Source: Ostreococcus lucimarinus (taxonomy: Eukaryota). Taken from it: a stretch of DNA of 64,000 nucleotides. The notes under the pieces are model-generated. The model worked only from the letters and a program-made list of their open reading frames with translations, had not been told where the DNA came from and did not search any database. The position numbers and the translations under genes are program-made. The stretch lies in assembly GCA_000092065.1 (NCBI GenBank), contig CP000581.1, one strand, 5' to 3'. Numbering within the stretch: position 1 is the first letter of the stretch; each line of letters starts with the position of its first letter. This document shows positions 8,394 to 60,294 of this stretch, one piece after another.

Positions 8394-10697
8394 TCAGACG
8401 ATTTCAGGGGTGACTGTGTCGTCTCCAGACGCTGCAGCGGCGGCTTGCGCGGTCATGAGCTTGAAGACCCGACTCGCGAAAACAGATGGCTTCTCGATGG
8501 AGAAACCAGACGTCAGCAAAGCGGTGTCGAACAAGAGTTGGCAGTTGTCTGCGGCTTCGGCGACGCCGGATTCCTTCATCTTTTTCAACTGAGCGATGAC
8601 GGGAGAAGCGGGGTTGATTTCCATCGTCTTCTTGCCCTTCATGTAATCTTGCGCGCGGTTATCACCCATGGCTTGGGCTTTCATGATGCGCTCCATGTTC
8701 GCGGACCAGCCGAATTTGGAAGTCACTAAGACGCACGGGGTGTCTGTGAGACGGTTTGACACCTCAACCTTTTCGACTTGTTCGCCGAGCGTGGCCTTCA
8801 TCCAGTCCGTGAGATCTTTGTACTCTTCCGCGAGCGCTTCGCGCGCGGCTTTGTCTGCATCGTCCTCATCACCGAGATCAAGCGCTTCCTTGGAAGCGTC
8901 GACGATGGGCTTTTCCTTGAACGTCGCCAAGTTGGCCATGGCGACTTCATCAATCGGATCGAGCAAGTATAAGACTTCGAAGCCCTTTTGCTTGAGCTTT
9001 TCGAGGAACGGAGAAGCTTCAGCGGCGTCCTTGTTGTCTGCAGCGACAAAATAGATGCTGTTTTGGCCCTCCGGCATGTCGTTCAAGTAGTCGTCCAAGC
9101 CTCGCAACTCGCCGTCGTCGCCGCTCTTCGACGTGGTGAAGCGCAAGAGTTCAGCCAAATCCTTGCGGTTGTCCGTGTCTTCGATGACGCCCAACTTCAG
9201 ATTACGTCCAAAGTTTTCCCAGAACGTGTCGTAATCGTCACCTTCACGCGCGGCGATGTCACGAAGCATGTCAAAAGTCTTGCGAATCAAGCGCTTGCGA
9301 ATGACGCGAACGATGCGAGATTCTTGAAGGATTTCGCGAGAGACGTTGAGAGGCAAGTCGGAAGAATCGACGACGCCTCGAACGAAGGTGAGGTATCGCG
9401 GCAACAACGACTCGTCAAACTCGTCGGAGATGAACACGCGTCGAACGAAGAGTTTAATAGCCTTCGATTTGGACATCATGTCCTGTTGCTCGAACGGCGC
9501 CATGCCTGGGATGAACAAGATGGAGCGGAATTCGATGTCGCCCTCCACGGCGAAATGCGAGTGCGCGAGCGGGTCGAGGAACTCTTTGAACGTGGATTTG
9601 AAGAACTCGTTATACGACTCTTGCTCGACATCCTTGGGCGAACGAACCCAGATGGGCTTATCGTTGTTGGCCGTCGTCCACTCTTCCACTTGCTCGAACT
9701 CCTTCTTCTTCACGGGTTTGGGTTCCGGCTCGGTGAACTCCTCGCCCTTGGCCTCGGCTTCGATCTTCTTCTTCTCCCACGCTTCCTTCAAAGCATCGGT
9801 AGAAGCCTTGTCTTCGACTTCCTTTTCCTTGGTCGTCTTCGCCCAGACATCGATGGGGAAAGAGATGAACTCGCTGTACGTCTTCACGAGCGACGACAGC
9901 TTTTCCCCTGTGGAGAATTCCTCGCATCCTTCCTTGAGGTGCAAGACGATTTTTGTCCCGCGCGCGATGGCTTCTTCGCTCTCCTTCACGGTGTACGAGC
10001 TGGCGTTGATCTCGGACTCCCACACCCACGTCTTGTCGTCGTCACCCGACGCCGCCTTGGAGTACACGGTGATTTTATCAGCCACCAAAAACGCCGAATA
10101 AAAGCCGACGCCGAATTTACCGATCAAGTTTTCCCCGTCGCTTCGGCTCTGCAACATTTCCATAAACTTGGCCGTTCCCGAGCGCGCGATCGTCCCGAGC
10201 GACGACACGAGATCTTCTTTGTTCATCCCAATCCCCGTGTCCTCGATCGTCAGCGTTTTCGCCTCGGGATCTCCCTTAATCTTAATTCTCAACTCCTCGT
10301 TCCCTCCCATGGCGTTCGGGTCCGAGAGCGCGGAGAATCGAAGCTTGTCGCACGCGTCGCTCGCGTTCGACACGAGCTCGCGCAAGAACACATCCTTATT
10401 GCTGTACAACGAGTTCACGATCAAATCCATCAATCGGTGCACCTGCGCGCGCGCGAGCACCGCGATCGTCAGTCTCGCCGAAGTTCCCTCCGTTCCCTCT
10501 CGCGTCTTCTAGAAGGCCTTCTAGAAGGCTCTCTTCCGTCGCGCGCGCGACGCCCTCGCGCGCCTCCGTCTTCGCCACCACTCGCGCGCCGTCTCGCGTC
10601 GTGCGCGCACCTCGGCTTGATACTCAAACGTCTCTTCCGTCGCCGCCGCGCGCGTCGTCGTCAGCGCGCGCGCGCGTCGCGGCGTCGCCGTCCGCAT
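8394..10697 (-). CDS. HSP90C: HSP90, organellar HtpG/HSP90C type (two exons: 10611..10697 and 8394..10442)
   Basis: Exon 2 begins VHRLMDLIVNSLYSNKDVFLRELVSNASDACDKLRF, the HSP90 ATP-binding N-domain, and the full-length middle and C domains follow. The missing upstream motif ETFEYQAE is found in frame 168 nt upstream after MRTATPRRARALTTTRAAATE, a short presequence. The C-terminus lacks MEEVD and KDEL, so an organellar form is inferred. Confidence 0.85.
10443..10610 (-). other. Spliceosomal intron (168 nt) in HSP90
   Basis: Minus-strand donor GAG|GTGCGC and acceptor cgcgcag|GTGCAC, phase 0. It joins ...FEYQAE to VHRLMD, matching the conserved HSP90 motif. Confidence 0.75.
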
Positions 10698-26463: not shown

Positions 26464-27558
26464 TCAATCGTCTTCTTCTTGGAGCAAGAGATAGTAGGCG
26501 AACGCGCACAAGCCGATGAAGGCGAACGGCGCGGCGCCGGCGCCGTATTCTTGCTTTTTGACGTTGCGGAACGAGTTGCGATCGAGCGCGCCAGAATACT
26601 TCTTGCGCTGCGCCGGCGCCGCCGCGGGCTTGGGCTTTGCGGTAGCCTTCACCTTGGACCCGGATTTCTTCGCCGCGTACGATTTCTTCGCCGTCGATCG
26701 CTTGCTCTTGGCGGCGTACGGAGACGGCGCGTCGCGGTTGCGGAACGCTTCGAGTTCAGCCTCCTTCTCCTCGGGCGTCTTTGATCGAAGCGCCTCCATG
26801 CGCTCACGCTGCGCGTCACGTCTCGCGCGCGCCGCCGCGGTCTCTTCTTTCGCTTGGCGCGCTCTGGCTTGCAACAGTTCGCGTTGCGCCGCCCGTCGAG
26901 CCTCCACCGCCGCCATCGCCGCGGCGTCTCTCTCCTTAATCTGCGCCCGCAACTTCGCTTGCCTCTCGGAATCTCTCGATTGCACCTCCGCTTGTACCTT
27001 GGCCAACCGCGCCGCGTTTTCCTCGCGCTTCTGTTGCGCCCTCAACGTCGCGTCGCTCGGCCCGTTCGCGCTCGGCGCGCTCGTCTTCGTCTTCGTCTTC
27101 GTCTTCGTCTTCGTCGATCCCCCATCGTTCGCGTCCGCGCCCGCCCCGACGAGCGCGCGCCAATTCCACGATTCAAACTCCTTCAAATCCTTATCGTCCT
27201 CAAGCGCCGGCGCGACGGATTCTTCCGAGTCCTCCACCGCCCTCGCGTACAGCGTCGCCGCGTCGAGCGTCTCCGCGCTCGCGTCCCCCCCCGCCTCCTC
27301 CGCGCGCGCGTCCCCGACGCTCGACATCGCCAGCGCCGCGCTCGCGACGACCGCCGCGACGTCCCGCATCGTCCATCGCGCCTTTTCGTCCTCCCACCGT
27401 CCCGCGCGCGTCACCGCGCGTCGCGTCTCGTCGGCATTCGCATTCGCGTTCGCGTTCGATCGATGAATCCGACGCGTCGATTTCGTCGTTCGTCGCGCGC
27501 CGGACGCGCGTCCCGCGTCGGCGACGCCGCGCGTCGTCGCGCGCGTCGTCGCCCGCAT
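26464..27558 (-). CDS. Coiled-coil protein with (KT)n tract and C-terminal transmembrane anchor
   Basis: Long Ala/Arg/Glu-rich coiled-coil region, [11 protein letters not shown]-terminal [15 protein letters not shown]. The start could instead be an internal Met. Confidence 0.4.
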
Positions 27559-28020
27559 CCCGATCGTCGCTCGCCCTCGCGCGTCGCGACGCGTCGGCCG
27601 ATGTCGTCACCGGACGCGATCGTTCGCCGTTCGAGCGCGGTCGGTCGGTCGTTCGGTCGCGCGCGCGCGTCGCGTCGCGTCGTCCGTCGCGCGCGCGGGC
27701 GATCGCGCGCGGCGATCGGCGCGACGCGACGCGCGCGACCGCTCGCGATCACGCGTCGCGCGTCGCGCGCCGCGCGCGAATCTCGAGCCGGCGCCGTCGC
27801 GCCGGCGCGGCGTCCGGCGCGCGCGCGCGTCGCGACGACGCGACGTACGCGACGTTGGCGCACGCGAGGAGGGCGAGCGCGGCGTACGCGGCGCCCTTGC
27901 CCGGCGGGCGCGCCCGCGCGAGGACGTACCCGAACGTCGCGCCGTCCGTCGCGCGCGCGCGACGACGTGACGACGCGACGACGCGACGACGCACGACGCG
28001 ACGCGACGACGCGACGCGCG

Positions 28021-29013
28021 ATGGCGACGGCGCGCGCGCGACGCGCGAGCGCGTCCGCGTGGCGCGTCGCGGCGCTCGCGTGCGCGCTCGCGTGCGCGGC
28101 GTGCGGCGCGTACGCGGCGAGCGCGCGCGACGCGAGTTCGTTGTTCGACGGCGTCGCGAGGCGACGGCGCGGACGACGCGGGACGGCGCGCGACGGCGAC
28201 GGCGCGGACGACGACGACGGCGACGACGACGCGCGAGTTCCCGCGTCGTCGACGGTGTGGACGCGGCGCGCGCTGTCGGTGCTGGTGCCGCTGCGCGGCG
28301 TCGCGCGGCGGTGGTTGTTGGGCGAGGGCGCGCGCGCGAGCGGCGCGTTCGTCGATCCGTCGCTGCCGATATACGTCGCGGGCGCGACGTCGTGCCGAGC
28401 GCTGGAGCGAAGGCTGGGGAAAGAGCTGTGGGTGTGGTTCGTCGACGCGATCGGGATCGGGCGGGCGAGCGCGGGGCGGGCGAGGTTGACGAGCGTGCTG
28501 CGAGACGCGAGGACGACGGAGGCGTTGGACGAGACGTTCGATGAATTAGCGAAGAGGTACCCGCGAGGACGATGCGAGGATGACGACGATGAGGGCGACG
28601 CGCGCGCGGTGAGCCTGAGCGCGGAGGGGCTGATTAAGTTTAGCGACGGGATACGCGGGTCGATTCGGAACGTCATGGCGCTTCGACCGGAAGCCGTGGC
28701 GATTCAGCCCGCGAGCGCGAGCGAGCACGCCTTCTTGCGGGATAACTTTGATTTATTGTTCCCGTCCACCGATCCCTTGGATCGGTCGACGTTTCACGCG
28801 CTGGCGAAGCTCATTTTAGTGCGCCGCATCGTCAAGGCGTTGGTCACGGATTTCGGCGGCGTCGAACGCATTCGACGCGGACTCGCCGAGCCGCTCGTCA
28901 TCGACGTCCAAGTCGTCGTCGAGGGCGACGTGGTGTTTCGCGTGCACACGGTCGCGCCGAAAAGTGACGCCGTGAGCGGCGTGGGACAGCGTTTAGGGGT
29001 AATTTCCGAATAG
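28021..29013 (+). CDS. Hypothetical protein with signal-peptide-like N-terminus
   Basis: This is the 3' third of a 719-aa ORF in the track; the part before ATG 28021 is Arg-rich antisense of the coiled-coil gene. Confidence 0.35.
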   Translation: MATARARRASASAWRVAALACALACAACGAYAASARDASSLFDGVARRRRGRRGTARDGDGADDDDGDDDARVPASSTVWTRRALSVLVPLRGVARRWLLGEGARASGAFVDPSLPIYVAGATSCRALERRLGKELWVWFVDAIGIGRASAGRARLTSVLRDARTTEALDETFDELAKRYPRGRCEDDDDEGDARAVSLSAEGLIKFSDGIRGSIRNVMALRPEAVAIQPASASEHAFLRDNFDLLFPSTDPLDRSTFHALAKLILVRRIVKALVTDFGGVERIRRGLAEPLVIDVQVVVEGDVVFRVHTVAPKSDAVSGVGQRLGVISE

Positions 29014-38819: not shown

Positions 38820-39773
38820 ATGACGCGCGCGTCCGACGCGCCGGACGCGTCGGCGCCTCGGCGCTCGCGCGCGGACGACGCCGTCGCCGGCGTCGTCGCC
38901 GGCGCGGCGTGCGTCGCGGCGGGACATCCGTTCGACACGGTGAAAGTGTTCGTGCAAAAGAACCGCGGACACACGACTGGAAGCGCCATCGCGGCGCTGT
39001 ACCGCGCGCGAGGCGCGCGAGGACTGTACGCGGGCGTCGCGGCGCCCCTGGTCGGGGCGTCGCTCGAGACGGGGGCGAACTACGCGTGCTTTCACGAGGC
39101 GCGCGAGGCGGCGCTCGCGGGCGCGAGCGGCGCGGGCGCGGGCGCGCGGTTGGCGGCGAGCGCGTTCGCGGGCGCCCTCGCGGGAGGGCTCATGACCCCA
39201 TTTCTGACGCCGTTCGAGCTGGTGAAGTGTCGAGCGCAGGTCGGGGACGGAGGCGGGAGCGCGCGGGCGGTGGCGCTCGACGTCTGGCGAACGCGCGGCG
39301 CGCTCGGATTGTTTCGCGGCGTCTCGCACACCGCGGCGCGCGAGATTCCGTCGGGAGCGGTGTATTTCGCGACGTATGAGATTTTCCGAACGATTTTCCC
39401 GCGCGCGCGCGGCGCGAGCGACGTCGGCGGCGACGTGACGCGCGCCGCGTTCGAGACGCGAGACGCGCGGGGCTTGCTCGTCGAGGCGCTCGCCGCGGCT
39501 TCGTGTGGCGGCGCCGCGGGCGTCGTCACCTGGCTCATCGTCCTTCCGTTGGATAACGCGAAGACTATTTACCAGTGCGAGCGTCCCGGCGGCGCGCGCG
39601 ACTTACCGCCGCTGGCGCTCCTTCGCGCTTTGGTCGCCGAGCGCGGCGTCTCCGGGCTCTGGCGCGGCGCCGCGCCCGTCGTCGCGCGCGCGTTTCCCGC
39701 CAACGCCGCGCAGTGGCTCGCGTGGGAGTTCGCGTCTCGCGCTCTGCGCGCCGACCGGCTCGAGCGCTCGTAG
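38820..39773 (+). CDS. Mitochondrial carrier family protein (carnitine/ornithine-carrier-like)
   Basis: Three-repeat MCF architecture with a GHPFDTVKV signature. The ORF in the track begins with GTG at 38769; the ATG is at 38820, 86 bp from the divergent SRP19 start. Confidence 0.7.
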   Translation: MTRASDAPDASAPRRSRADDAVAGVVAGAACVAAGHPFDTVKVFVQKNRGHTTGSAIAALYRARGARGLYAGVAAPLVGASLETGANYACFHEAREAALAGASGAGAGARLAASAFAGALAGGLMTPFLTPFELVKCRAQVGDGGGSARAVALDVWRTRGALGLFRGVSHTAAREIPSGAVYFATYEIFRTIFPRARGASDVGGDVTRAAFETRDARGLLVEALAAASCGGAAGVVTWLIVLPLDNAKTIYQCERPGGARDLPPLALLRALVAERGVSGLWRGAAPVVARAFPANAAQWLAWEFASRALRADRLERS

Positions 39774-43821: not shown

Positions 43822-46800
43822 CTAAGCCGCGGGCGTCGGAAGCGCGACGCAAGAGAGCATGCCGAATCGATCACCGTAGATATATCTGTTTCGAGATACT
43901 TCAATCACGGAGCACAGCGCGCTAGTGGAGCGCTTCAGAGGTGGCGCGCACATTGCGACAGGCGACCAGCTCGAGCGGCGTCCTTGTAGACGCGCTGTGG
44001 AGAGGTTCCAGCACGCAAATGAACAGTCTGTAGATGCTGAGAGTAATGGCTTCATCTCCATGTCTCTGACTCCCTTACCGGAGCTTCCCGCATTCACAGA
44101 ATTCGTCCGTTTCGGTCTTCCACTCCCCTCGGTCGTCAGGCACGTCACCGCTCCGACGTGCGCTCGAGACTTGCTCACGCAGCGCCACGCCTGACGAACA
44201 TCGTTCACGAGTTCGCCCCCGGACCAAAGGCACAGCTCGCCGTCGCTGGAACCAGATGCGATTATACCCACGGGCTCACGACCACGAGTTTCGTCCTGAA
44301 GTACGCAGAGCGAGGTGACGTCACCCAAGTGCCCGCTCAGACGAATGTCGCCCCCGGTGTCGCCATCGAGACGCAACACTCGCACTAAACCGTCCGCACC
44401 CGCGCTGGCGGTAGAGTCTGACCCTCGCAAAGGTGCCAAATACGTCACTCTGCCTTGATGCGCGTGTGCCAGCGACACTGGCCCTGCTGTGGCGTAACGA
44501 GGATCCCAAGCGCGCACCACGCCCGCGGCATCGCCAGTGAGAATGCTGCCGACGGCACCGCCGCGCGCGTCGCGAGTGGCAAAGGCAGTGACGCCACCAA
44601 CGTGGCCTTTAATCACGCTCACTGCACGCGTTGCATCGCTTTGTCTAGCGTCCCAGAGTTTCACGGTGCCATCGTTTCCCGCCGATGCGGTGAGCGGCGC
44701 AGACGATATTACTTGATTCACCACCGGAGACACGAAGGATACGGTTTCTCCTCTGTGCGCGTCCGGAACGATGGATATACGCGTGCCCGTCACCGAATCC
44801 CACGTCTCAATCACCCCATCACGGCGACCGCAGAACGCATGCGCGCTACGCGGTATAAACGTCAGCGCAGAGAGCGGTGATGCGTGAATTTGCGGACTGT
44901 GCGAACGCGTCGTGACGCCTGAATCCGGAGCGAAGAAAGCGACGTCACCTCGGCCACTTCCAAGAGCCACCAAGGACGAGACAACACCAGACTGCACAGT
45001 CATCGCCGTAATGGCTGATCGATCCCATATCTGTGCTTCAATAACGTCCGAAGGACAACAATCTTGCACGGGTGCGTACGAATGTAAGGCTCTGTCGTTT
45101 GCGCCAAAGTGGAATGCGCTCGATTGTCGCAACTTTTCCACCCAAGACTCGAATGAAATCGTGGAGTACGCCGACGCCGACAGAGCTCTGCCAACACTAA
45201 CGTCGACTTCAACGGAACACATTTTCTCAAAATCAAATCTCACCATGACTTCGTTCAATAACGCAGAGGATTGGTCCGAAGTCAGTCCGACGAGGGCAAA
45301 GCACCGAACCAGATCACTTGTCCTGGTTTCGGCGTCGGTACCGTGTAACCATGCGACGTCTGTATTGACGGCAAATAAACCGCACCAAAGATTGACAGCA
45401 TCCCATCGTGCGGCTCCCTTTAACCAAAGCGTGCGGGTATTCGAAGGCTGATAAGTGCGTACGATGCGGATGGCGTGCGCCAGCGACGTGGCATCGCCGG
45501 CAGCATCGGCGCGCAGAACGGCTGCGCTGATCGCGATTGAAACAATATTGAAACGCCTGGTACCGGAGATCAAATGCCTTTTGACACCAGTGAGAAGAGC
45601 GATGTAGTTGAGAGTTGCGGCGTGCTCCGCCAAGGCGGCCGCCACGACGTCGTCGTGATTGGTGAAAATTGGATACACGAGCGCCGTCGCCTCGTCGACG
45701 TCGTCATCGTCATTGGATGGCTGCAAATCTTGCGGGACCTCGACCGTATCGATCGCCTCATCGTCGTCAAGCACATCCAAATCATCACGGTGCGAACGGA
45801 TGTAGTCAGCCAATGATGCCGCATCTTTCTTTGTCAGCGTGTTGTAATACCAGTCAAAGTTGACCGCCTTGTCAGCGTTCTCGGCGACTTGTATCGCTTT
45901 TGCTAGGGCGCGTTCTTCGGGCAACGCGTCGGACCCCATTCGACGTCGCACTCTATCTTTTAACCATCCCCATGTTGCTCGCTTTAGCGTCGAATTGGTT
46001 GACGATCGAGCATCTCGGACGGGAACATCGTTGAATTTGTCGACGTTTTCGCCGCCGAGCGAAGGAGAAGAGTCCATAAACTTTGCCTCGATCTTTTGAT
46101 AAATCGAAAGCGAGCGCATAGACTTTGCGCTTTGCTGGGCGTCATCGAAATTCGAAATATGAAGACGCGGTATCAAAAGCGAGTCCGTCGACCGAGACTC
46201 GATAGAAGCGGGTAAAACCAACGAGTCGCCTGTCAGCTGTGTCGAACGAAATTTCGCGCGTCTCTTCCTGCCGATGTCTCCTGCTACAGATTTTCCAAGC
46301 CTGGACAGCGACGAAGCGTCGTCTAGCAAGGACAAGAACGCATTTGTTTCCAAAATCTGATCCGTGAACGCACCGCGCCAACGACTGATTTCGTGCCTAT
46401 AATCGTGTTTCTTGAGTTGCGCCGCCCCGCTGGCGTCCTGCACGACGTAACGATGAAGAGAATCGAGCTGAAGTAACTCGTACCAAAAATCGGTGAAAAC
46501 CGCAGTCACACGCATGTTGACGTCCGCATCCCAGTTGACGAACATGCTCGCATCGAGCTCGTCCGTATCAACGATACCAGGCTTGATTATCTTTCGCACG
46601 CGTTCGATGAAATCTCGCAACATGCTCTCTTGAGGCAGGAGAATTTGCTCGCCGCCGTCTCGCATCGATCCCGTGTCTAAATCTACCACCGTAACACCCT
46701 CGAGCGCGCGTTCATCCACGTCGACGTCGTGCGTGGCTCCCATGATAAACGGCATGGGCGCATCCAAGTAATCAACCATTGAAATCGGCAAGCAGGGAAT

Positions 46801-47727
46801 GTACACGTGTCTCCACACGAGCGGATGCGCGAGCCCGCTCAGGGCTTCGGCGCACTTGACCAACAAGCTCACCTGCTTGCTTCGCAACAGCAACCGACGC
46901 TCGCACGCGATCGCCGCGACACACTTGAACACAGTTCGCACGGGCAAACACCGCATCAGCGGCTCTTTACCGTCCGCAAACGCCTCGCGCGCGCCGTGAT
47001 CCGCCGCCCCCCGCGGCGGCACCGTCACCAACGCGCCGCCGATTGGAAACAAAACCGCGCGATCGCGTCGCCACATCAACCTATCCACCACCATCTCCGC
47101 GATCACGGACAGAACCGGTAGGTGCCCTCGCCCTGGCTTTCTAAAGTAAGCCTCGAACACGTGCTCCAACGCCTCCATCCACGCGTCCAGGCACGGCATT
47201 CGCGACACCAAACACACGCACGCCCGCGCGCGCGTCGCCCCCGCCGTCTCCCCGCTCATCGTCCTCAGGCTCCGCTCCGGCGTCGCCGCCACGAACGACA
47301 CGCACGCGACGTATATCCTATCCCCGTTTTCATCCGTCAGTATCGTCGGGTACCGAGTCGGATGTTCGTCGTCCGCGCGTTCGTCGTCGCCGTACGCGTC
47401 GACGCCTCGCGGCAGCGCCAGCGTCGCCAACTGCGCCGGGTACCGCGCGCTCGCCCGCGGGCACTCATCGAGCACGCCGGCGTGATACACCGTCCGCGTC
47501 CACTCGCGCGCGTCCGCCGTCGCCGCCGCCGTCGTCGCCGTCGCCGTTCCGCTCGCGATACCGTTGCTCGACGTCCCGACCCCTCGCGCGCGCGCGCGCC
47601 GCATCGCGCGCGGGTTCGGCGGCAACCCGCACACGACGAACGCGTCCACGCACGCGCCCGTCGTCGCGCGCGCGCGCCGCGCGTCGCCGTCGCCGTCCTC
47701 GTCGCCGTCGTCGCTCGCGCGCGTCAT
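43822..47727 (-). CDS. DENN-domain / WD40-repeat protein (SCD1-like)
   Basis: uDENN-DENN-dDENN region (PIGGALVTVPP...LLLRSKQVSLLVKCAEALSGLAHPLVWRHVYIPCLPISMVDYLDAPMPFIMG), long linker and C-terminal WD40 repeats (DGTVKLWD, GHVGGVTAF, SGSSDGELCLW). ATG lies inside the 47630-47835 inverted repeat. Confidence 0.75.
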   Translation of the reverse strand: MTRASDDGDEDGDGDARRARATTGACVDAFVVCGLPPNPRAMRRARARGVGTSSNGIASGTATATTAAATADAREWTRTVYHAGVLDECPRASARYPAQLATLALPRGVDAYGDDERADDEHPTRYPTILTDENGDRIYVACVSFVAATPERSLRTMSGETAGATRARACVCLVSRMPCLDAWMEALEHVFEAYFRKPGRGHLPVLSVIAEMVVDRLMWRRDRAVLFPIGGALVTVPPRGAADHGAREAFADGKEPLMRCLPVRTVFKCVAAIACERRLLLRSKQVSLLVKCAEALSGLAHPLVWRHVYIPCLPISMVDYLDAPMPFIMGATHDVDVDERALEGVTVVDLDTGSMRDGGEQILLPQESMLRDFIERVRKIIKPGIVDTDELDASMFVNWDADVNMRVTAVFTDFWYELLQLDSLHRYVVQDASGAAQLKKHDYRHEISRWRGAFTDQILETNAFLSLLDDASSLSRLGKSVAGDIGRKRRAKFRSTQLTGDSLVLPASIESRSTDSLLIPRLHISNFDDAQQSAKSMRSLSIYQKIEAKFMDSSPSLGGENVDKFNDVPVRDARSSTNSTLKRATWGWLKDRVRRRMGSDALPEERALAKAIQVAENADKAVNFDWYYNTLTKKDAASLADYIRSHRDDLDVLDDDEAIDTVEVPQDLQPSNDDDDVDEATALVYPIFTNHDDVVAAALAEHAATLNYIALLTGVKRHLISGTRRFNIVSIAISAAVLRADAAGDATSLAHAIRIVRTYQPSNTRTLWLKGAARWDAVNLWCGLFAVNTDVAWLHGTDAETRTSDLVRCFALVGLTSDQSSALLNEVMVRFDFEKMCSVEVDVSVGRALSASAYSTISFESWVEKLRQSSAFHFGANDRALHSYAPVQDCCPSDVIEAQIWDRSAITAMTVQSGVVSSLVALGSGRGDVAFFAPDSGVTTRSHSPQIHASPLSALTFIPRSAHAFCGRRDGVIETWDSVTGTRISIVPDAHRGETVSFVSPVVNQVISSAPLTASAGNDGTVKLWDARQSDATRAVSVIKGHVGGVTAFATRDARGGAVGSILTGDAAGVVRAWDPRYATAGPVSLAHAHQGRVTYLAPLRGSDSTASAGADGLVRVLRLDGDTGGDIRLSGHLGDVTSLCVLQDETRGREPVGIIASGSSDGELCLWSGGELVNDVRQAWRCVSKSRAHVGAVTCLTTEGSGRPKRTNSVNAGSSGKGVRDMEMKPLLSASTDCSFACWNLSTARLQGRRSSWSPVAMCAPPLKRSTSALCSVIEVSRNRYIYGDRFGMLSCVALPTPAA

Positions 47728-47835
47728 TCGTCGACGCGTCGACGAATGACGACGCGCGCTCCGGACGACGGCGACGCGCGACGCGGTCGCTCGACGACGG
47801 GCGCGTCGTCGGACGCCTTCGTCGAGGGCGACGCG
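47630..47835. repeat. Imperfect ~100-nt inverted repeat centred on the perfect 18-nt palindrome TCGTCGACGCGTCGACGA (47728..47745), containing the start codons of two divergent genes
   Basis: Arms share about 80% identity with one 18-nt indel. The left arm read on the minus strand is ATGACGCGCGCGAGCGACGACGGCGAC... and the right arm is ATGACGACGCGCGCTCCGGACGACGGCGAC... Confidence 0.7.
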
Positions 47836-48591
47836 TTCGAGTACGCGCGCCGGACGACGGCGAACACGACGGGGCAGCTGACGTGGCCCGCCGCGCGCGC
47901 GCTCGCGGCGTTTCTCGACGCGAGCGACGCGCTGCGGCGCGCGCGCGAGGTGCTCGAACTCGGCAGCGGTAACGGTTGGCTCGGCCTCGCGGTGCTGCGC
48001 GCGCGCGGCGCGCGCGACGTGCGAGTGACGATGACGGAGACGACGGAAGGCGGCGCGCTGCGATGGCTCGAGGCGCGGGCGCGGGCGAACGCGGCGTGGG
48101 GACGGATCGAGGGCGACGACGGCGCGCGCGCGCGGTGTCGAGCGTTGAATTGGAACGCGTTTTCGTCCGACGCGGCGGCGAGCGACGCGGGCGACGCGGG
48201 CGACGGCGAGGAAGGCGCGAACGCGGACGCGAGGGGCTCGGCGAGGACGGAGGACGAGACGCCGCTCACGGCGGATTCGCCCGAACTCGCCGACGTCGAC
48301 GTCGTGCTCGGCGCGGATTTAGTGTACGACGACGCCGGTGTCGTCGCGCTTCCGCGCGTCGTCAAGGCGTTGCTCTCGCGCGCGCGGTCGGGTGCGGTGT
48401 TTTATTACGCGCACACCAAGCACAGATACGACGGGATGGATTTGGATTTTTTCGCGAACGTCTCGGCGAACGGGTTGACGTGCGAAGAGGTTCGCCCGCG
48501 CGGCGCCCCGAGTCCACCGCCGAGCCCACCGCCGTTCGAATCGTTATTTCCCGATCAGCGCATCGCTATTTATCGCATCGCGCTCGCGTAG
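47746..48591 (+). CDS. Methyltransf_16-family (METTL21/FAM86-like) protein lysine methyltransferase
   Basis: LTWPAARALAAFL...REVLELGSGNGWLGLAV...DVVLGADLVYD. It is the 3' part of a 489-aa ORF in the track; the part before ATG 47746 is antisense of the DENN gene. Confidence 0.65.
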   Translation: MTTRAPDDGDARRGRSTTGASSDAFVEGDAFEYARRTTANTTGQLTWPAARALAAFLDASDALRRAREVLELGSGNGWLGLAVLRARGARDVRVTMTETTEGGALRWLEARARANAAWGRIEGDDGARARCRALNWNAFSSDAAASDAGDAGDGEEGANADARGSARTEDETPLTADSPELADVDVVLGADLVYDDAGVVALPRVVKALLSRARSGAVFYYAHTKHRYDGMDLDFFANVSANGLTCEEVRPRGAPSPPPSPPPFESLFPDQRIAIYRIALA

Positions 48592-54517: not shown

Positions 54518-54834
54518 CGCCTTCGCGTCTCCGCCGCGACGATCGCGACGATCGCGTTCGTCTCGCGTCGTCGATGCCATCCCACTCGACCCATAGTCTG
54601 CGTTTCTCAATCTCACGCATCGGTCTCCCCGCGCTCGTCGCGCTCGTCCGCGTCGCTCGCGCTCGCCCTCGGCCCCCCAGGCCTGGGCTCGCCGCCGTCG
54701 TTCGGCCGAGGATCGGGATTGGCGCGATTGTCGTCGTCGCAATTACACCGCGCGCGACCGCGCGCGAACGCGCCGCGCGCGCTCGAGCGCTCGAACGCGC
54801 GCGGGAAGGCGTCGCGCGCGTCGCGAGCGTCGCG

Positions 54835-57174
54835 ATGCTCGCGCGCGACGTCGCGCGCGACGTCGCGCGCGCGACGCGCGACGCGCGCGAAGACCTGGCG
54901 TTCGGAAGCGCGGCGACGATGCGGTTCACGCGCGCGCCGACGAGCGCGCGAGGGACGAGCGAGGCGGTGCGAGCGTCGCCGACGCAAGCGCGGATCGCGG
55001 CGGAGGCGCGGGAGCGCGGCGAGGGACGGACGCGGTCGCCGTCGCCGGCGAAACGGTCGCGAAAGGGAAAACCGAGGAGCACGAGGACGGGCGCGGTGAG
55101 CGCGAGGACGCGATTGGCGTTCTCTCCGGAGGCGGCGGTGGCGATGCTTCGAGGGATGAATCGACGCGCTGGGAAGGGGGCGAACGGCGGCGGAGGAGAG
55201 GCGAACGCGAGCGCGAATGAGCGAGGGAAGAGAACGAAGACGGAGACGAAGAAGAAACCGCCGCGGAGAAAGTTGGTTCGGTCGGAAAGTTTCAAGTACT
55301 TGAACGAGGCGGGCGAGCTGGAAGCGGTGGAGGGCGCGCCGAATGGGCGCGATGGCGGTAAAAACGATGGTGGCGGCGCCGGTCTCGCGGGTGCGAATGG
55401 AAACGGTTACAAGACGACGGCGAGCGGCGCGAAGCGAGGCAGAGGCGAACAGCCGCTGCCGTCGACGAGTGGTGGTGGCGCGGGATCAAAGACGAAGAAG
55501 CAAACGTTACGTGCGAAGTCAGAGACCAGGCGCGTATCGCTTGATCCGCGCGGTCGAGCGAAAAACAAGCCGTTTGAAAACAACACGCTGTACCAGCCTG
55601 GAAACGTCATCGTGGGTTTACATCTCAACACGCGCGGAGGTAAGGAATGGTACACGAACAAGCAATTGGTTGGATCGTGCAAGCCGGGCTCGTTGTTAGA
55701 AATATCATCAAAGTCCTTGACGGCGCCGACAAAGGCGGCGATTTCTAGCGCGTTGCGCGACGAAGCCAACGGAGAGAAAGTCGAGAAATTTGTTCGCGTC
55801 AAGGTCATGTCGCATTACTTAGACGTGAGTGGCTGGACGCTCACGACGGTGCAAGTAGTGCCGCTACGCTGGAATAGACATGGGCCGAAGCACATACTTC
55901 CGTTGTGCGCTGCCGCCGGCGTGGAGCTCGTTTTCAACTTGACCGAAGAGGCGGCGTACGGATGCTTGCGCGTTTTCAGGTTTCCAATAGGCTCAAATGG
56001 TCATCTCAGCGAGCTGCGCAAGAGCACGAAGGGTGCGACGTCACCGTCTACGCTCGATTCGGAGCGCGTTGTGCGACCGAGCACACCGCCGAGAATGCGA
56101 ACACCATCGCCGAAGAAGCGAAAGAACCGGGCTCACGGTGGATCCTCGGATCGAACGAGCGATCCGTCGAACGCCGCCGCCGCCGCCGCCGCCGCTGAGG
56201 CTCTGGAAGCGCAAGAGGAAGACGAAGACGAGGAAGACGCTGAAGAAGACGGAGACGGAGACGGAGACGAAGACGAGGAAGACGCTGAAGAAGACGGAGA
56301 CGGAGACGGAGACGAAGACGAAGACGAAGACGAAGAGTTGGGCGAAGCGTTCATCCCAGAAAATGGATTGCACAGCGAACTTCCATCCAGTTTGCCCGTC
56401 ATCAAGCCCGTTTTGGGCACGCCATTCTGGGATCAACCGCGCAACGCAACGAACGCAGAAGTCGAGTTGGGTGCGCCAGTGCTTACGATCGGTGAAATCG
56501 GTGGCATCGAACAGCGTCACATTGAGACCCCGCGCAAACGGACAGTCGACTCGCCGCTCTTCGACAACGGCCGAGCGCAACTGCGAGAGTTTTACGACCG
56601 ATTTCACGAACGCGCCACCATTGACGCTGCGCGACCGTACAGAGAACACGTGGTGACGACCGACACATACGTCCCTAGCGGATCGCCCTTGACGATGTCA
56701 CTGCCGCAATCGCAGGTTCACAACATGCCGCCTGTAGCCGCGCAGCGCTTCGTCAGTCCCACCGTGTACTACCTCCCGGTCCCGATTTCTCCGCACGGAG
56801 CGTCGGGAACCATCACTGAAACCATCGTTGGGGGCATGCGCTTACGCATCACTCAGGAACCGATCGAAGGATGGGCGCGGCACGACGTAGTCGCCGAGAC
56901 GGCGAACAATCCCCATCCGCAGCTTCGCACGGAATCGGATGCCTTCTCCGATGTTCACCGCGAGCGTCAGCGTGTCAACGCCAAGCGTGGAGTCCCGAAA
57001 GCACGCGCGAAGCAAATGCGCGTTCAAGATGATGATGACAACCTTCTCGCCGCCAACCTACTCATGCTCAAGACATCCGTCGCCGGACAAAAGCGCAAGC
57101 CGCCGACGCCGAGCAAACCGAGCGCCAAGCGAGCGAAATCGCAAAAAGTCGACTCTGCGCGGAAATCGAGATGA
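54835..57174 (+). CDS. Hypothetical basic/acidic low-complexity protein, probably nuclear
   Basis: This is the 3' two-thirds of a 991-aa ORF in the track; start set at the first plausible ATG after the upstream gene stop. Carries an exact 60-nt tandem duplication encoding EEDAEEDGDGDGDEDE and a Lys-rich C-terminus. Confidence 0.35.
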   Translation: MLARDVARDVARATRDAREDLAFGSAATMRFTRAPTSARGTSEAVRASPTQARIAAEARERGEGRTRSPSPAKRSRKGKPRSTRTGAVSARTRLAFSPEAAVAMLRGMNRRAGKGANGGGGEANASANERGKRTKTETKKKPPRRKLVRSESFKYLNEAGELEAVEGAPNGRDGGKNDGGGAGLAGANGNGYKTTASGAKRGRGEQPLPSTSGGGAGSKTKKQTLRAKSETRRVSLDPRGRAKNKPFENNTLYQPGNVIVGLHLNTRGGKEWYTNKQLVGSCKPGSLLEISSKSLTAPTKAAISSALRDEANGEKVEKFVRVKVMSHYLDVSGWTLTTVQVVPLRWNRHGPKHILPLCAAAGVELVFNLTEEAAYGCLRVFRFPIGSNGHLSELRKSTKGATSPSTLDSERVVRPSTPPRMRTPSPKKRKNRAHGGSSDRTSDPSNAAAAAAAAEALEAQEEDEDEEDAEEDGDGDGDEDEEDAEEDGDGDGDEDEDEDEELGEAFIPENGLHSELPSSLPVIKPVLGTPFWDQPRNATNAEVELGAPVLTIGEIGGIEQRHIETPRKRTVDSPLFDNGRAQLREFYDRFHERATIDAARPYREHVVTTDTYVPSGSPLTMSLPQSQVHNMPPVAAQRFVSPTVYYLPVPISPHGASGTITETIVGGMRLRITQEPIEGWARHDVVAETANNPHPQLRTESDAFSDVHRERQRVNAKRGVPKARAKQMRVQDDDDNLLAANLLMLKTSVAGQKRKPPTPSKPSAKRAKSQKVDSARKSR
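56221..56340 (+). repeat. Exact 60-nt in-frame tandem duplication within the coding sequence
   Basis: gaagacgaggaagacgctgaagaagacggagacggagacggagacgaagacgag occurs twice, encoding EEDAEEDGDGDGDEDE twice. Confidence 0.8.
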
Positions 57175-57545: not shown

Positions 57546-59510
57546 CTATGATGCGCCTCCATTCAAAGCCGCCGCTGACGCCACTCGATCTTCGCGAGAG
57601 TTCTTGGAGTTAAGTTGTTGCTCCCACATATCCCTGTACAAGCCACGCTGTTTCCCGTGCAGCGTGACGTGATCGCCACTCTCGACGATTTCGCCCTCCT
57701 TCAAGACGAGAATGTTATCGCTATCCATAACTGTACTCAGACGATGCGCGATGACGAGATTTGTTCTTCCTTGCGCCGCAAAGTTGATAGCGACCATGAT
57801 TTGCTTCTCAGTGTGCGTATCTAAGCTCGATGTCGCTTCATCGTAGACCATGATTGGTGGATTCTTCAACAACGCTCGCGCGATGGCGACGCGTTGCTTC
57901 TCGCCGCCGCTGAGCCTCAAACCTCGTTCGCCGACGAGAGTGTTGTACCCTAAAGGTTGGCGCCTGACAAAATCATCGAATTGGGCGTGCTCCGCAGCCG
58001 CCGTGACCTCATCCGTCGTGGCGACTTCCCCCGTGCCAAGCTTGCCGAAGCCAATGTTGTACTCGATGGTGTCGTTGAACAAGACGCAGTCTTGCGGGAC
58101 GATGCCGATGTGCAACCGCACGCTTCGCTGCGTGCATCGCTTGATGTCTTGACCAGCTATACGTATAACACCACCTTGTATGTCGTAAAGGCGGTAGATG
58201 AGTTTGCTTATCGTACTTTTTCCAGCGCCGGATCGTCCGACGAGCGCCACCTTTGTGCCGGGCTCGACGATGAACGATACGCGATTGAGAATAAGCCTCT
58301 CGTTAGGATTATACGCAAAAGTAACGTTCTCAAACTCCACTCTGGCGTCAGCTTTAGATTTAAGAACGAGCACTTTCGAATCTTGCAAGTCTTCCACTTC
58401 TTGGTGTTCTCTGAGAAGTTTGAACATTGACTCCACGTCGACCATGCACTGCTTTATCATGCGATAATACGTCCCTAGGAAATTCAGTGGCACGTACAGC
58501 TGCAAAATGTACGTATTCACTAGAACAAAGTCACCGACGGTCATCTTTCCCTCCACGACTCGCTTCGCCGCCAGAGCGAGAGATGCGGTAATACCGACGG
58601 TGATGATGAGCGCTTGACCGAGGTTCAATCCGGCGAGAGACTGCGTCGTCTTTAACGTCGCCTTTTGCGTCGAGCGCAAGGCTTCGTCGTAGGTGTGAGT
58701 GATGTGCGGCTCAGCGCAAAACAATTTGATGGTTTCGAAATTCAGAAGCGAATCCGTCGCCTTCTGGTTGAACGCGTCGTCCGCAAGAACCATTTCTCTC
58801 CTAAACTTGTTTCGCCACTCCGTAAACGGAACGGTGAAGCCGATGTACGCCGCGATCACGCCGACGGTGATGACGGCAAAGCACCATTCGTATTGCGAAA
58901 ACAAATACGCACACACCAAGCCAACCTCTAAGAAGATCGGCGCGATCTGAAACGAAATATATCGCAACAAGTTCGCGAACGACTCCGAACCTCGCGCGCA
59001 CGCCCGAATCACCGCCCCCGTCTTTCTATTGATGTGAAATCTCAGACTCAGATCCATGACGTGCGTGAACACTCGAAGCGATATTCCACGACTCGCGTGC
59101 GCCGCGACGTACGCGAAGCAATTATCCTTCAGCTCTGCGCACAAATTCGCCCCGAACCGCAGCGCGCCGTAAATCAAAATCGGCTGCAAGTACCCGTTCT
59201 CCCCCTTCGCAATCTTATCCACCGCCGCCTTCAGCGCGATCGGCGACGCGACGTTCGCCACTTTGGACGCCAACAAAAATATCACGCTCGCCGTGAACAT
59301 CACTTTGAGCAACGGTTGATCCTTCGGCCACAGGTACGGCAGCAGATGTCGCAGGTCTTCCTTGTGTCGCCTCCAAAACGACTCCTCCGCCTCGCTCTTC
59401 TTCGTCGATCCCCCGTTCGCCGCCTCGGACGCGCTCGGCGCGCGCGTTCCATCGTTCTTCGTCGCCGCGGCGACGTTCACGATCACCGCGCTCGCGGTCG
59501 TCGTCGACAT
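57546..59510 (-). CDS. ABC transporter B-family half-transporter (ATM/HMT type)
   Basis: Six-helix TMD followed by an NBD with Walker A GRSGAGKST, signature LSGGEKQRVAIARA, Walker B and H-loop (VIAHRLSTV). Confidence 0.85.
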   Translation of the reverse strand: MSTTTASAVIVNVAAATKNDGTRAPSASEAANGGSTKKSEAEESFWRRHKEDLRHLLPYLWPKDQPLLKVMFTASVIFLLASKVANVASPIALKAAVDKIAKGENGYLQPILIYGALRFGANLCAELKDNCFAYVAAHASRGISLRVFTHVMDLSLRFHINRKTGAVIRACARGSESFANLLRYISFQIAPIFLEVGLVCAYLFSQYEWCFAVITVGVIAAYIGFTVPFTEWRNKFRREMVLADDAFNQKATDSLLNFETIKLFCAEPHITHTYDEALRSTQKATLKTTQSLAGLNLGQALIITVGITASLALAAKRVVEGKMTVGDFVLVNTYILQLYVPLNFLGTYYRMIKQCMVDVESMFKLLREHQEVEDLQDSKVLVLKSKADARVEFENVTFAYNPNERLILNRVSFIVEPGTKVALVGRSGAGKSTISKLIYRLYDIQGGVIRIAGQDIKRCTQRSVRLHIGIVPQDCVLFNDTIEYNIGFGKLGTGEVATTDEVTAAAEHAQFDDFVRRQPLGYNTLVGERGLRLSGGEKQRVAIARALLKNPPIMVYDEATSSLDTHTEKQIMVAINFAAQGRTNLVIAHRLSTVMDSDNILVLKEGEIVESGDHVTLHGKQRGLYRDMWEQQLNSKNSREDRVASAAALNGGAS

Positions 59511-59745
59511 GTCGCCGACGACACCCGGTCGCCGACGTCAGCGCGTCGTTATCCTCCGCGCTCGCGCGTCGACGCGCGCGCGACGCGGCGCGCGCGCGGC
59601 GGGGGAGAGGAGATTCGCGTTCGCGCGCCTCGCGCCTCGCGCGCGATGGACGGACGCGTTCGCGCGCGTCCGCGTCGTCGAGTGCGACGGCGAACGCGAT
59701 GCGACGCGTCGACGTCGCAAAACCGCGCGCGCGGCGCCGCGCGCG

Positions 59746-60294
59746 ATGACGAAACCGTCGCGCGAGCGCGCGCGCACGTCGAAGGCGACGCCGGCGGCGT
59801 CCGCGCGCGGCGTCGGGGCGACGACGACGACGACGAAGGCGAAGGCGAAGGCGAAGCGCGCCGCCGACGGTGGGCGAGGCGACGGCGCGGCGCGCGACGA
59901 CGCGAAACGGGGACGCGACGCGCGCGCGAGCGGTGAGGAAGGGGCGAAAGCGAACGATGACGATGGGTTCGACGTCGACGCGCTGTTCGGGGACGCGAAG
60001 AAGCGCGCGGTGAAGATGAATTCGGGCGCGCGAGAGGCGGCGGCTGCGGCGGAGGCGCCGCGCGTGCGCGTGCTGCTCCCGGGACAGAAGAAACCGAAAC
60101 AGAAGAGAGATAAGCCAGAGTTTACGCCCGTAGATAAACCGCGAAGGTATGAGGACGGTTTGCCGGTGTATAAATCGTACGGGGATTTCAGCGACATGAA
60201 GGCGGGGCAGTGCGACGACGGGAACGGGAAGAAACGGGGACCGAACGGCGAACCGGGCGGAGATTGTCCTTTCGACTGCTGGTGTTGCTTCTGA
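59746..60294 (+). CDS. Small basic protein with C-terminal CPFDCWCCF motif (hypothetical)
   Basis: The ORF upstream of ATG 59746 is Arg-rich and overlaps the ABC gene start. TGTAA at 60347-60351. Confidence 0.35.
   Translation: MTKPSRERARTSKATPAASARGVGATTTTTKAKAKAKRAADGGRGDGAARDDAKRGRDARASGEEGAKANDDDGFDVDALFGDAKKRAVKMNSGAREAAAAAEAPRVRVLLPGQKKPKQKRDKPEFTPVDKPRRYEDGLPVYKSYGDFSDMKAGQCDDGNGKKRGPNGEPGGDCPFDCWCCF

Follow-up and report, generated by a model that had tools for sequence, protein, structure and literature searches.

In yeast, template switching is known to homogenise and expand inverted repeats, both within coding DNA and at promoters (Abraham & Hazkani-Covo 2021, PMC8604942; Rozenfeld et al. 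2026, PMC13100816), and a cluster of substitutions that perfects a quasi-palindrome is its textbook signature (PMC8604942, PMC7202029, PMC7954356). Here we examined an inverted repeat of about 200 nt at the shared start of two divergent and unrelated genes, one for a DENN/WD40 protein and the other for a Methyltransf_16 protein, in a 64,000-nt stretch of chromosome 1 of Ostreococcus lucimarinus CCE9901 (the window). Like the yeast inverted repeats (PMC8604942, PMC13100816), this one is imperfect, has a short spacer, shows a multinucleotide cluster that turns one arm into the complement of the other (here at 47713-47716 in the metagenome contig L022), alters several neighbouring codons and lies at a promoter location. 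Unlike them, its arms are ∼95-110 nt rather than a few to tens of nt long, it is found in a prasinophyte alga, and it spans two unrelated divergent starts and, as we read it, supplies one gene with its ATG and N-terminal peptide. With the quasipalindrome reporters of E. coli and yeast (PMC7202029) and short-range switching in primates (PMC7954356) it shares the proposed polymerase mechanism and a hairpin-perfecting cluster; those systems, however, describe mutational spectra at small hairpins, whereas the present repeat is a fixed feature of a species with coding effects in two genes. RNA hairpins made by template switching (PMC8794818) resemble it in having a long near-perfect stem built in one or a few steps and compensatory-looking changes that arise through copying of an arm, but their product is a functional structured RNA, while the stem considered here would enclose two protein starts.

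Two further arrangements invite comparison. Bidirectional promoters in compact genomes also separate divergent genes by a minimal shared intergenic region; ordinary ones leave the coding regions non-homologous, and within the window the palindrome is the exception. Head-to-head paralogues from inverted segmental duplication likewise have mirror-image gene starts around a centre of symmetry, but the homology here stops after ∼30 codons and the gene bodies are DENN/WD40 on one side and Methyltransf_16 on the other. A search of the literature on bidirectional promoters and Ostreococcus gave no relevant results, and we found no description of a ∼200-nt palindrome between unrelated divergent genes that donates a start codon and a shared N-terminal peptide. 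An earlier note on this DNA, made from the sequence alone, had supposed the architecture to be undescribed; this holds for the palindrome with its shared start peptide and not for inverted-repeat expansion and homogenisation, which are documented (PMC8604942, PMC13100816). The mechanism is known and its consequence unusual: the locus is a case study in mutation and gene-start evolution, not a new biological system.

The DENN/WD40 gene (43822-47727, minus strand) encodes 1301 amino acids and the methyltransferase gene (47746-48591, plus strand) encodes 281. Both window proteins match the public models XP_001415729.1 and XP_001415383.1, respectively, residue for residue, and these models use the same ATGs. 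By Pfam analysis the minus-strand protein has uDENN (PF03456, 4.6e-07) and DENN (PF02141, 2.2e-30) domains followed by C-terminal WD40 families at residues 904-1199; it is presumably SCD1-like, by comparison with Arabidopsis SCD1. The plus-strand protein belongs to Methyltransf_16 (PF10294; 49.9 bits against a cut-off of 21, E = 4.2e-13), a lysine methyltransferase family, and its orthologues are conserved from D23 onward. Inverted duplication of a whole gene, giving head-to-head paralogues, found no support, as the gene bodies show no homology, their Pfam families differ and the similarity stops at about residue 31 of the DENN protein and residue 26 of the methyltransferase. Spacers between divergent ATGs in the window measure -2, 18, 50, 59, 86, 94 and 116 nt; tight spacing is ordinary in this genome and it is the palindrome that is unusual.

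Read on the plus strand, the junction runs from CAT at 47725-47727 (the DENN ATG, minus strand) through TCGTCGACGCGTCGACGA at 47728-47745 to the methyltransferase ATG at 47746-47748. The earlier note had recognised a perfect palindrome of 18 nt between the two ATGs; the 18-nt spacer is as described, but the true extent of the perfect core is 30 nt (47722-47751, CGTCATTCGTCGACG followed by CGTCGACGAATGACG), so that it holds both start codons as well as the spacer. Within the 64 kb this core is exceeded in length by a single perfect palindrome, a low-complexity CG run, and it sits at the centre of the ∼200-nt quasi-palindrome. Each arm takes in one half of the spacer and the start codon of its gene; the left or DENN arm (47628-47736, minus strand) runs through DENN codons 1-33 (MTRASDDGDEDGDGDARRARATTGACVDAFVVCG) and the right or methyltransferase arm (47737-47830, plus strand) through methyltransferase codons 1-28 (MTTRAPDDGDARRGRSTTGASSDAFVEG). 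An ungapped repeat search paired 47628-47692 with 47766-47830 at 83% identity, while with gaps allowed the full arms, 109 nt on the left and 94 nt on the right, aligned with 82 matches, 9 mismatches and 21 gap columns, or 90%; the inverted repeat is real, and the ∼80% identity first given for its arms was too low. The main indels between the arms are of 3 nt and 17-18 nt, and since the arm lengths differ by 15 nt, which is divisible by three, each ATG is in frame with its own gene.

At their outer ends both arms carry GACGCSTTCGTCG, which encodes DAFV in the same codon phase in the two proteins. In the DENN gene this 13-nt anchor is GACGCGTTCGTCG (47634-47646, minus strand), encoding D28-A29-F30-V31 at the start of the uDENN domain, and in the methyltransferase gene it is GACGCCTTCGTCG (47812-47824, plus strand), encoding D23-A24-F25-V26. 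The N-terminal peptides, MTRASDDGDEDGDGDARRARATTGACVDAFV in the DENN protein and MTTRAPDDGDARRGRSTTGASSDAFV in the methyltransferase, are nearly alike over ∼25 residues, and the match is collinear from the 30-nt core through M-T-(T)-R-A, DDGD and ARRxRxTTGAxxDAFV. The whole is an imperfect inverted repeat with a short or no spacer and with marked hairpin potential, the predicted DNA hairpin having -107.6 kcal/mol (z = -7) and the predicted RNA hairpins -155 and -165 kcal/mol (z about -6.5). We put at roughly 70% the probability that it is a young, lineage-specific inverted duplication (quasi-palindrome) produced by DNA-polymerase template switching at the head-to-head gene pair. Its lineage-specific presence, the polarity of the arms, the in-phase ancestral anchors, present-day copying from arm to arm and the strong hairpin potential all support this reading.

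Divergent coding regions compositionally mirror each other, and a repeat of this kind has to be judged against that background. Convergent low complexity could in principle mimic an inverted repeat if the two proteins carried acidic, Arg/Ala-rich tails written in the same GC-rich codons and read outward from the junction. The coding DNA here is rich in (ACG)n/(GCG)n low complexity, which gives score distributions a heavy tail and inflates DNA-level shuffle z-scores; we placed the weight on an empirical null of gene pairs and on protein-level comparison, not on shuffle z-scores. In a symmetric inverted-repeat scan, 7 of the 10 divergent junctions in the window fell at or above the 95th percentile of 150-nt blocks, likely owing to coding flanks that are read outward with a common GC-rich codon bias. 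The DENN arm scored 33-37 against unrelated D/G/R-rich coding tiles, compared with 40.5 against its partner, the unrelated gene 38820 opens with the same six residues as the DENN gene, and a second divergent pair (59509/59510) has overlapping ATGs within a near-palindrome. Against these likenesses stands the collinearity of the match from the core to DAFV. The scan over every centre in the 64 kb placed this site first, with 41.5 compared to 29.5 for the next (mean 8.6, standard deviation 2.8), codon shuffling of both arms gave z = 12.5, and the best other match of the methyltransferase arm in the tile comparison was just 24.5. Among the 741 gene pairs in the window, BLOSUM62 local comparison of the first 37 residues gave 80 for this pair and 49 for the next (mean 21, standard deviation 7.3). 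At the DNA level the pair was again at the top of the 741 N-terminus pairs, with 48.7 to 39.7, other pairs reaching 35-40. Together with the haplotype of contig L022, in which one arm has actually been copied onto the other (see below), these results make convergent low complexity very improbable. The near-identical start peptides reported at the outset are thus borne out, and measured against background the pair stays a clear outlier at the protein level; the inverted-repeat observation is confirmed and is stronger than first stated.

Several features of the same background deserve mention in their own right. Divergent junctions with high scores include 1759/1854, 6708/6929, 21567/21627 and 52079/52664. 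The second-highest inverted-repeat scores of the window originate in a CG-rich tandem low-complexity block of ∼700 nt (27528-28263) between called open reading frames (ORFs), with periods of 2, 6, 8, 15, 20, 30-35 and 53. Gene 38820-39773 (plus strand) begins with MTRASD (ATGACGCGCGCGTCCGAC, 38820-38837); starts of the type ATGACGCGCGCG recur through composition, which calls for caution with any claim of N-terminal similarity in this genome.

Both genes can be placed as starting inside the repeat, as the earlier note had it, because conserved residues precede the next in-frame methionine in each and no other AUG lies within several hundred nt upstream; the case is one of sequence logic, which supports it fairly tightly. 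Upstream of the starts, ATG is absent in any frame from 47363-47745 on the plus strand (383 nt) and from 47728-48560 on the minus strand (833 nt). The methyltransferase start codon (47746-47748, plus strand) would therefore be the first plus-strand AUG for any transcription start site within 47363-47745, and the DENN start codon (47725-47727, minus strand) the first minus-strand AUG for any within 47728-48560. In the DENN protein the conserved start of uDENN, VDAFVVCGLPPNP, lies upstream of the next methionine, M42, and the motif [VI]D[AV]x[VA][VL]CGL(PP) is present in all DENN orthologues examined. In the methyltransferase, conservation sets in at D23 (DAFVEGDAxEYA) and includes the invariant residues Y33, T41, T42 and G43, all ahead of the next in-frame methionine, M96. 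The missing upstream AUGs were also considered as a sign of long overlapping 5' untranslated regions, and this was rejected, a CAT-free run of 833 nt being insignificant in view of the local composition (Markov expectation 1.6); we used the run for the first-AUG argument only. A very stable hairpin around an AUG should block initiation by scanning. An mRNA that started inside the opposite arm would be predicted to fold its 5' end into a hairpin of -155 to -165 kcal/mol around the AUG; given the block to initiation expected of such a hairpin, the leaders are predicted to be very short, with starts within or close to the spacer, or else both genes to be translated less.

To place the repeat in time we turned to relatives. 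The head-to-head DENN/methyltransferase pair is kept in six Ostreococcus-like metagenome lineages (L007, L008, L009, L012, L014 and L018), with ATG spacers of 27, 42, 1, 60, 30 and 76 nt, and the long repeat is absent from all six, their symmetric inverted-repeat scores being 13-19 compared with 41.5 in O. lucimarinus. The spacer of L007, TCGTCGTCGTCGTCGGCGTGTGCGGCG, is non-palindromic, and the spacers of the other relatives are likewise non-palindromic and unrelated. Bathycoccus was uninformative as a comparison, since its methyltransferase orthologue does not adjoin the DENN gene. A protein word search with the first 200 DENN residues added no further lineages, returning just a frameshifted copy of the same gene. 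In the closest relative, L007 (also seen as L021 and L026), the DENN protein has 92% amino acid identity and four-fold sites differ by 10-16%. Its DENN gene starts MATRARDDDDDDARRARATTGACVDALV, and ∼45 nt of the distal DENN arm are identical to the window. The methyltransferase of L007, L021 and L026 starts M-DAFVEG, without the right arm. Because the DENN arm is shared with L007 while the L007 methyltransferase has no counterpart of the right arm, the DENN arm reads as the older one and the methyltransferase arm as new in, or kept only by, O. lucimarinus. The sequence DAFVEGDA is conserved in the methyltransferases of L007 and L008, and the anchor GACGCSTTCGTCG, present in L007 and largely so in L008, predates the repeat; only this DAFV anchor is common to the relatives, as expected if the repeat is a derived state.

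Elsewhere the N-terminal leaders of methyltransferase orthologues range from 1 to 17 residues, and since the orthologues manage with these, the extension in O. lucimarinus is probably dispensable. Most likely the peptide common to the two proteins is disordered, tolerated at the N-terminus and without a specific role, and the function implied by the original wording of 'leader peptide' was not borne out. Two further observations were set aside. In L012 the two genes open with similar peptides, MRRATVD and MPRAAVD; judged by eye, however, their DNA agrees at just ∼65% over 23 nt, in CG-periodic surroundings, and we regard the likeness as not significant. On a 795-nt ENA contig, a 182-residue methyltransferase 'variant' (P0003) takes its first 16 residues (MRVAAEPARDAARARA) from another reading frame of the DENN-side region, and is probably a chimera assembled at a GC-rich (GCGCG-rich) repeat.

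Within the species, a scan of JGI metagenomes with the methyltransferase anchor identified nine O. lucimarinus contigs and two contigs of the L007 type. The imperfect palindrome occurs with few or no differences in the reference genome and in at least 14 independent metagenome contigs, and the 30-nt core is invariant in the 14 population contigs that were aligned to the window. We distinguished three haplotypes. H1 comprises the window sequence and most contigs (e.g. L020, L024, L025 and L028), with ..GTCGCTCGCGCGCGTCAT in the left arm and ATGACGACGCGCGCTCCGGAC in the right. H2 (L003, L023, L031 and L032) has the same left arm and a G to A change at 47763 in the right. In H3, represented by L022, GCTC at 47713-47716 of the left arm is replaced by TGGA and the right arm has A at 47763 as in H2. 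The single-nucleotide polymorphism (SNP) at 47763 (plus strand, TCCGGAC or TCCAGAC) thus segregates, the A allele occurring in L003, L022, L023, L031 and L032. When reverse-complemented, the H3 left arm reads ATGACGCGCGCTCCAGACGACGG, which is the exact right-arm sequence including the segregating A, and this derived A is also found in contigs that keep an unconverted left arm. The H3 state is itself derived, because the state of L007 (CGCGCGCGCGAC) is nearest to the left arm of the reference (H1). Chimeric joining during k-mer assembly is implausible as the source of the L022 cluster because the flanking perfect matches are just 5 and 11 nt, and L022 carries private SNPs elsewhere, as expected for a distinct strain. 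L022 therefore shows a multinucleotide cluster that makes one arm the exact complement of the other, and changes S5 of the DENN protein to P. The arms still exchange sequence, in one haplotype in the methyltransferase-to-DENN direction. Polymorphism is also concentrated here, with 7 events in the 208-nt palindrome and 14 in the remaining 1493 nt.

The same contigs bear on whether the palindrome could be a sequencing or assembly artefact, such as a chimeric fold-back. The structure does disturb sequencing, in that the edge of the left arm is a breakpoint for some metagenome contigs and the hairpin is missing from one. Yet the finished reference chromosome and at least 14 independent assemblies, drawn from separate samples and projects, all have the same imperfect palindrome, in which SNPs segregate, and fold-back artefacts would be perfect rather than 90% identical with indels. 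We regard an artefact as hardly credible. The contig without the hairpin, L034, lacks a 161-nt stretch (47647-47807), and with it both ATGs, between CGCGTC direct repeats at the hairpin base; its junction lies at L034:3060-3100 (window 47641-47807). This gap may be a real deletion allele, formed by excision of the hairpin, or an artefact of polymerase jumping or assembly. Four contigs of the same JGI project, L035-L038, end at the outer edge of the left arm (∼47606-47640), and for this reason the gene caller places their DENN start at M42. As contigs of one project end at the left arm, the L034 deletion may reflect an effect of the hairpin on polymerase or assembly rather than an allele; the palindrome appears to break short-read assemblies.

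From these observations we propose the following origin. Before the event, both proteins already carried DAFV near their N-termini (GACGCSTTCGTCG in the same phase), which amounts to a short ancestral inverted repeat. During replication or repair, a nascent strand would have copied through the DENN start and folded back near 47736, and the complementary copy of the DENN start, comprising half of the spacer, the ATG and ∼26 codons, would then have served as template. The strand would next have rejoined the original template, probably at the methyltransferase's DAFV anchor, displacing the old start. The anchor being in phase in both genes, the transplanted ATG would automatically have been in frame. 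In this way the methyltransferase would have gained a new start codon and an extension of 22 residues, low in complexity, acidic and Arg-rich, that shares its ancestry with the start of the DENN protein. Point changes, together with slippage in the acidic run that left the 17-18-nt indel, would since have brought the identity down to 90%, while occasional further switches would have made stretches of the two arms alike again, a process that would likewise account for the perfect core. The 13-nt anchor, a microhomology present in both genes, predates the event; with one outgroup to compare, the switch and return points given above are tentative. Arm divergence, at 9 of 91 aligned positions (∼10%), compares with four-fold divergence of 10-16% between the window and L007, and fits an origin around or after the L007 split. 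Of the two explanations put forward in the earlier note, duplication of the gene starts by inversion is supported by the lineage-specific repeat, by the orthology of the DENN arm to the DENN start of L007 and by arm-to-arm copying in L022.

A number of observations weigh against this reading and, besides the background scores of the DENN arm and the inflated shuffle scores given above, concern the timing, the size and the transcripts. There is a single close outgroup lineage, so that a gain in O. lucimarinus and the loss in L007 of an older repeat are not cleanly separable. The methyltransferase of the more distant L009 opens with MTT (ATGACGACG), and part of the right arm could be ancestral, a likeness tempered by the recurrence of ATGACG.CGCG-type starts through composition, as in gene 38820. 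Sequence ahead of the L007 methyltransferase ATG (GGCGTGTGCG..) faintly resembles the DENN arm. A single switch of ∼75-90 nt would be longer than most documented short-range events, and stepwise expansion is equally possible. The sole hint on the starts is a Tara metatranscriptome unigene with 30 nt upstream of the methyltransferase ATG, which lends weak support to an RNA crossing the DENN start codon; Tara unigenes can merge neighbouring genes.

The outgroup observations lead to the alternative that the same mechanism acted earlier, before O. lucimarinus and L007 separated, and that L007 then deleted the methyltransferase arm and acquired a new ATG before DAFVEG. The DENN N-terminal extension is common to both lineages, and in L007 the 10-13 nt before the methyltransferase ATG (GGCGTGTGCG[GCGA]TG followed by GACGCC) resemble the DENN arm (GGCGCGTGCGTG followed by GACGCG), a resemblance that nevertheless sits in a CG-periodic background. 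Palindromes are deletion-prone, and one contig lacks 161 nt exactly across the hairpin. On the other hand, the arms have diverged (∼10% of aligned sites) no more than the lineages have at four-fold sites (10-16%), and distant relatives have short methyltransferase N-termini without the repeat, which makes a single gain more parsimonious. We consider an older duplication unlikely, though it deserves to be kept in mind, and prefer the young, lineage-specific one.

Selection rather than mutation might instead have kept the palindrome, if it is a functional control element shared by the two genes, for example a site for a dimeric transcription factor, a cruciform in a promoter that serves both directions or a 5' hairpin coupling the translation of the two mRNAs; the mirror peptides would then be a side effect or themselves functional. 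The core is perfect where the arms are 90% identical, it is unchanged in the 14 aligned population contigs, the predicted hairpins are very stable, and in yeast an expanded inverted repeat at the GRE2 promoter altered expression of that gene (PMC13100816). Yet the core palindrome is missing from the orthologous spacer of the sister lineage L007 and of the five other relatives. The 18-mer does not recur in the 64 kb of the window either: it has one exact copy, and allowing up to 3 mismatches yields 4 matches where 1.18 are expected, a number that 6 of 100 shuffles also attain. Moreover, population diversity is too low for the invariance of 30 nt to mean much, and the arms are more polymorphic than their flanks. 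A conserved control element is thus not supported by the relatives or by recurrence in the window, and we rate the idea as improbable. This also speaks against the second explanation of the earlier note, that a palindromic promoter or 5' untranslated element had been drawn into both coding regions, since the core is absent in six relatives and no other gene start in the window carries it. A MluI-box-like ACGCGT in the core, considered as a cell-cycle element, was dropped, as it showed neither conservation nor recurrence.

A more far-reaching form of this idea is that the palindrome has been co-opted as a shared switch. The mRNAs would start in the opposite arm and bear a hairpin of about -150 kcal/mol over the AUG, or the DNA would form a cruciform, and the expression of a DENN/WD40 trafficking gene and a lysine methyltransferase would be coupled. 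We think of this as a long shot, less probable still than a control element in general. If it were true, the ∼25-residue peptide might also act as a common signal, such as a degron or localisation tag, and, with the 59509/59510 pair, a general 'palindromic bidirectional start' architecture in ultra-compact picoalgal genomes would come into view. Should the palindrome affect expression at all, control of a bidirectional start by a hairpin or cruciform could be studied here in a simple system.

Under the preferred reading, a young inverted duplication by template switching, the locus is a natural example of a non-point mutation making coding sequence, in which a start codon and ∼25 codons have apparently been moved in frame to an unrelated neighbour. 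The transfer could be in frame because both genes happened to share an in-phase anchor of four codons. N-terminal extensions and new start codons could then arise in one step where divergent ATGs lie tens of bases apart, and neither gene fusion nor exon shuffling would be needed for unrelated proteins to gain a common peptide. A conversion cluster, what may be a hairpin deletion, and raised polymorphism show the process under way in the population. Caution is also indicated, in that multinucleotide or parallel changes and N-terminal 'homology' of this sort can be mistaken for selection or for a shared signal peptide.

Three other palindromes in the window were noted. The second head-to-head pair has its start codons overlapping at 59508-59511 within the near-palindrome GTCGTCGTCGACATGTCGCCGACGAC (59483-59530). 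On the minus strand, an ABCB transporter (57546-59510) starts MSTTTAS, and XP_001415731.1 uses that ATG; on the plus strand, a DUF1764 ORF (59509-60294) has the putative start MSPTTPG and, with this start, is not an annotated protein in the collection. The longest perfect palindrome of the window, 32 nt at 54840-54871 (CGCGCGCGACGTCGCGCGCGACGTCGCGCGCG), is low-complexity and CG-rich and lies in or near the 5' part of the ORF 54574-57174 (plus strand). Finally, a perfect 22-nt palindrome at 10506-10527 (CTTCTAGAAGGCCTTCTAGAAG) contains two TTCTAGAA units and lies 76 nt upstream of the ATG of gene 8394-10430 (minus strand); we take it to resemble a heat-shock element, the gene being presumably HSP90-like.

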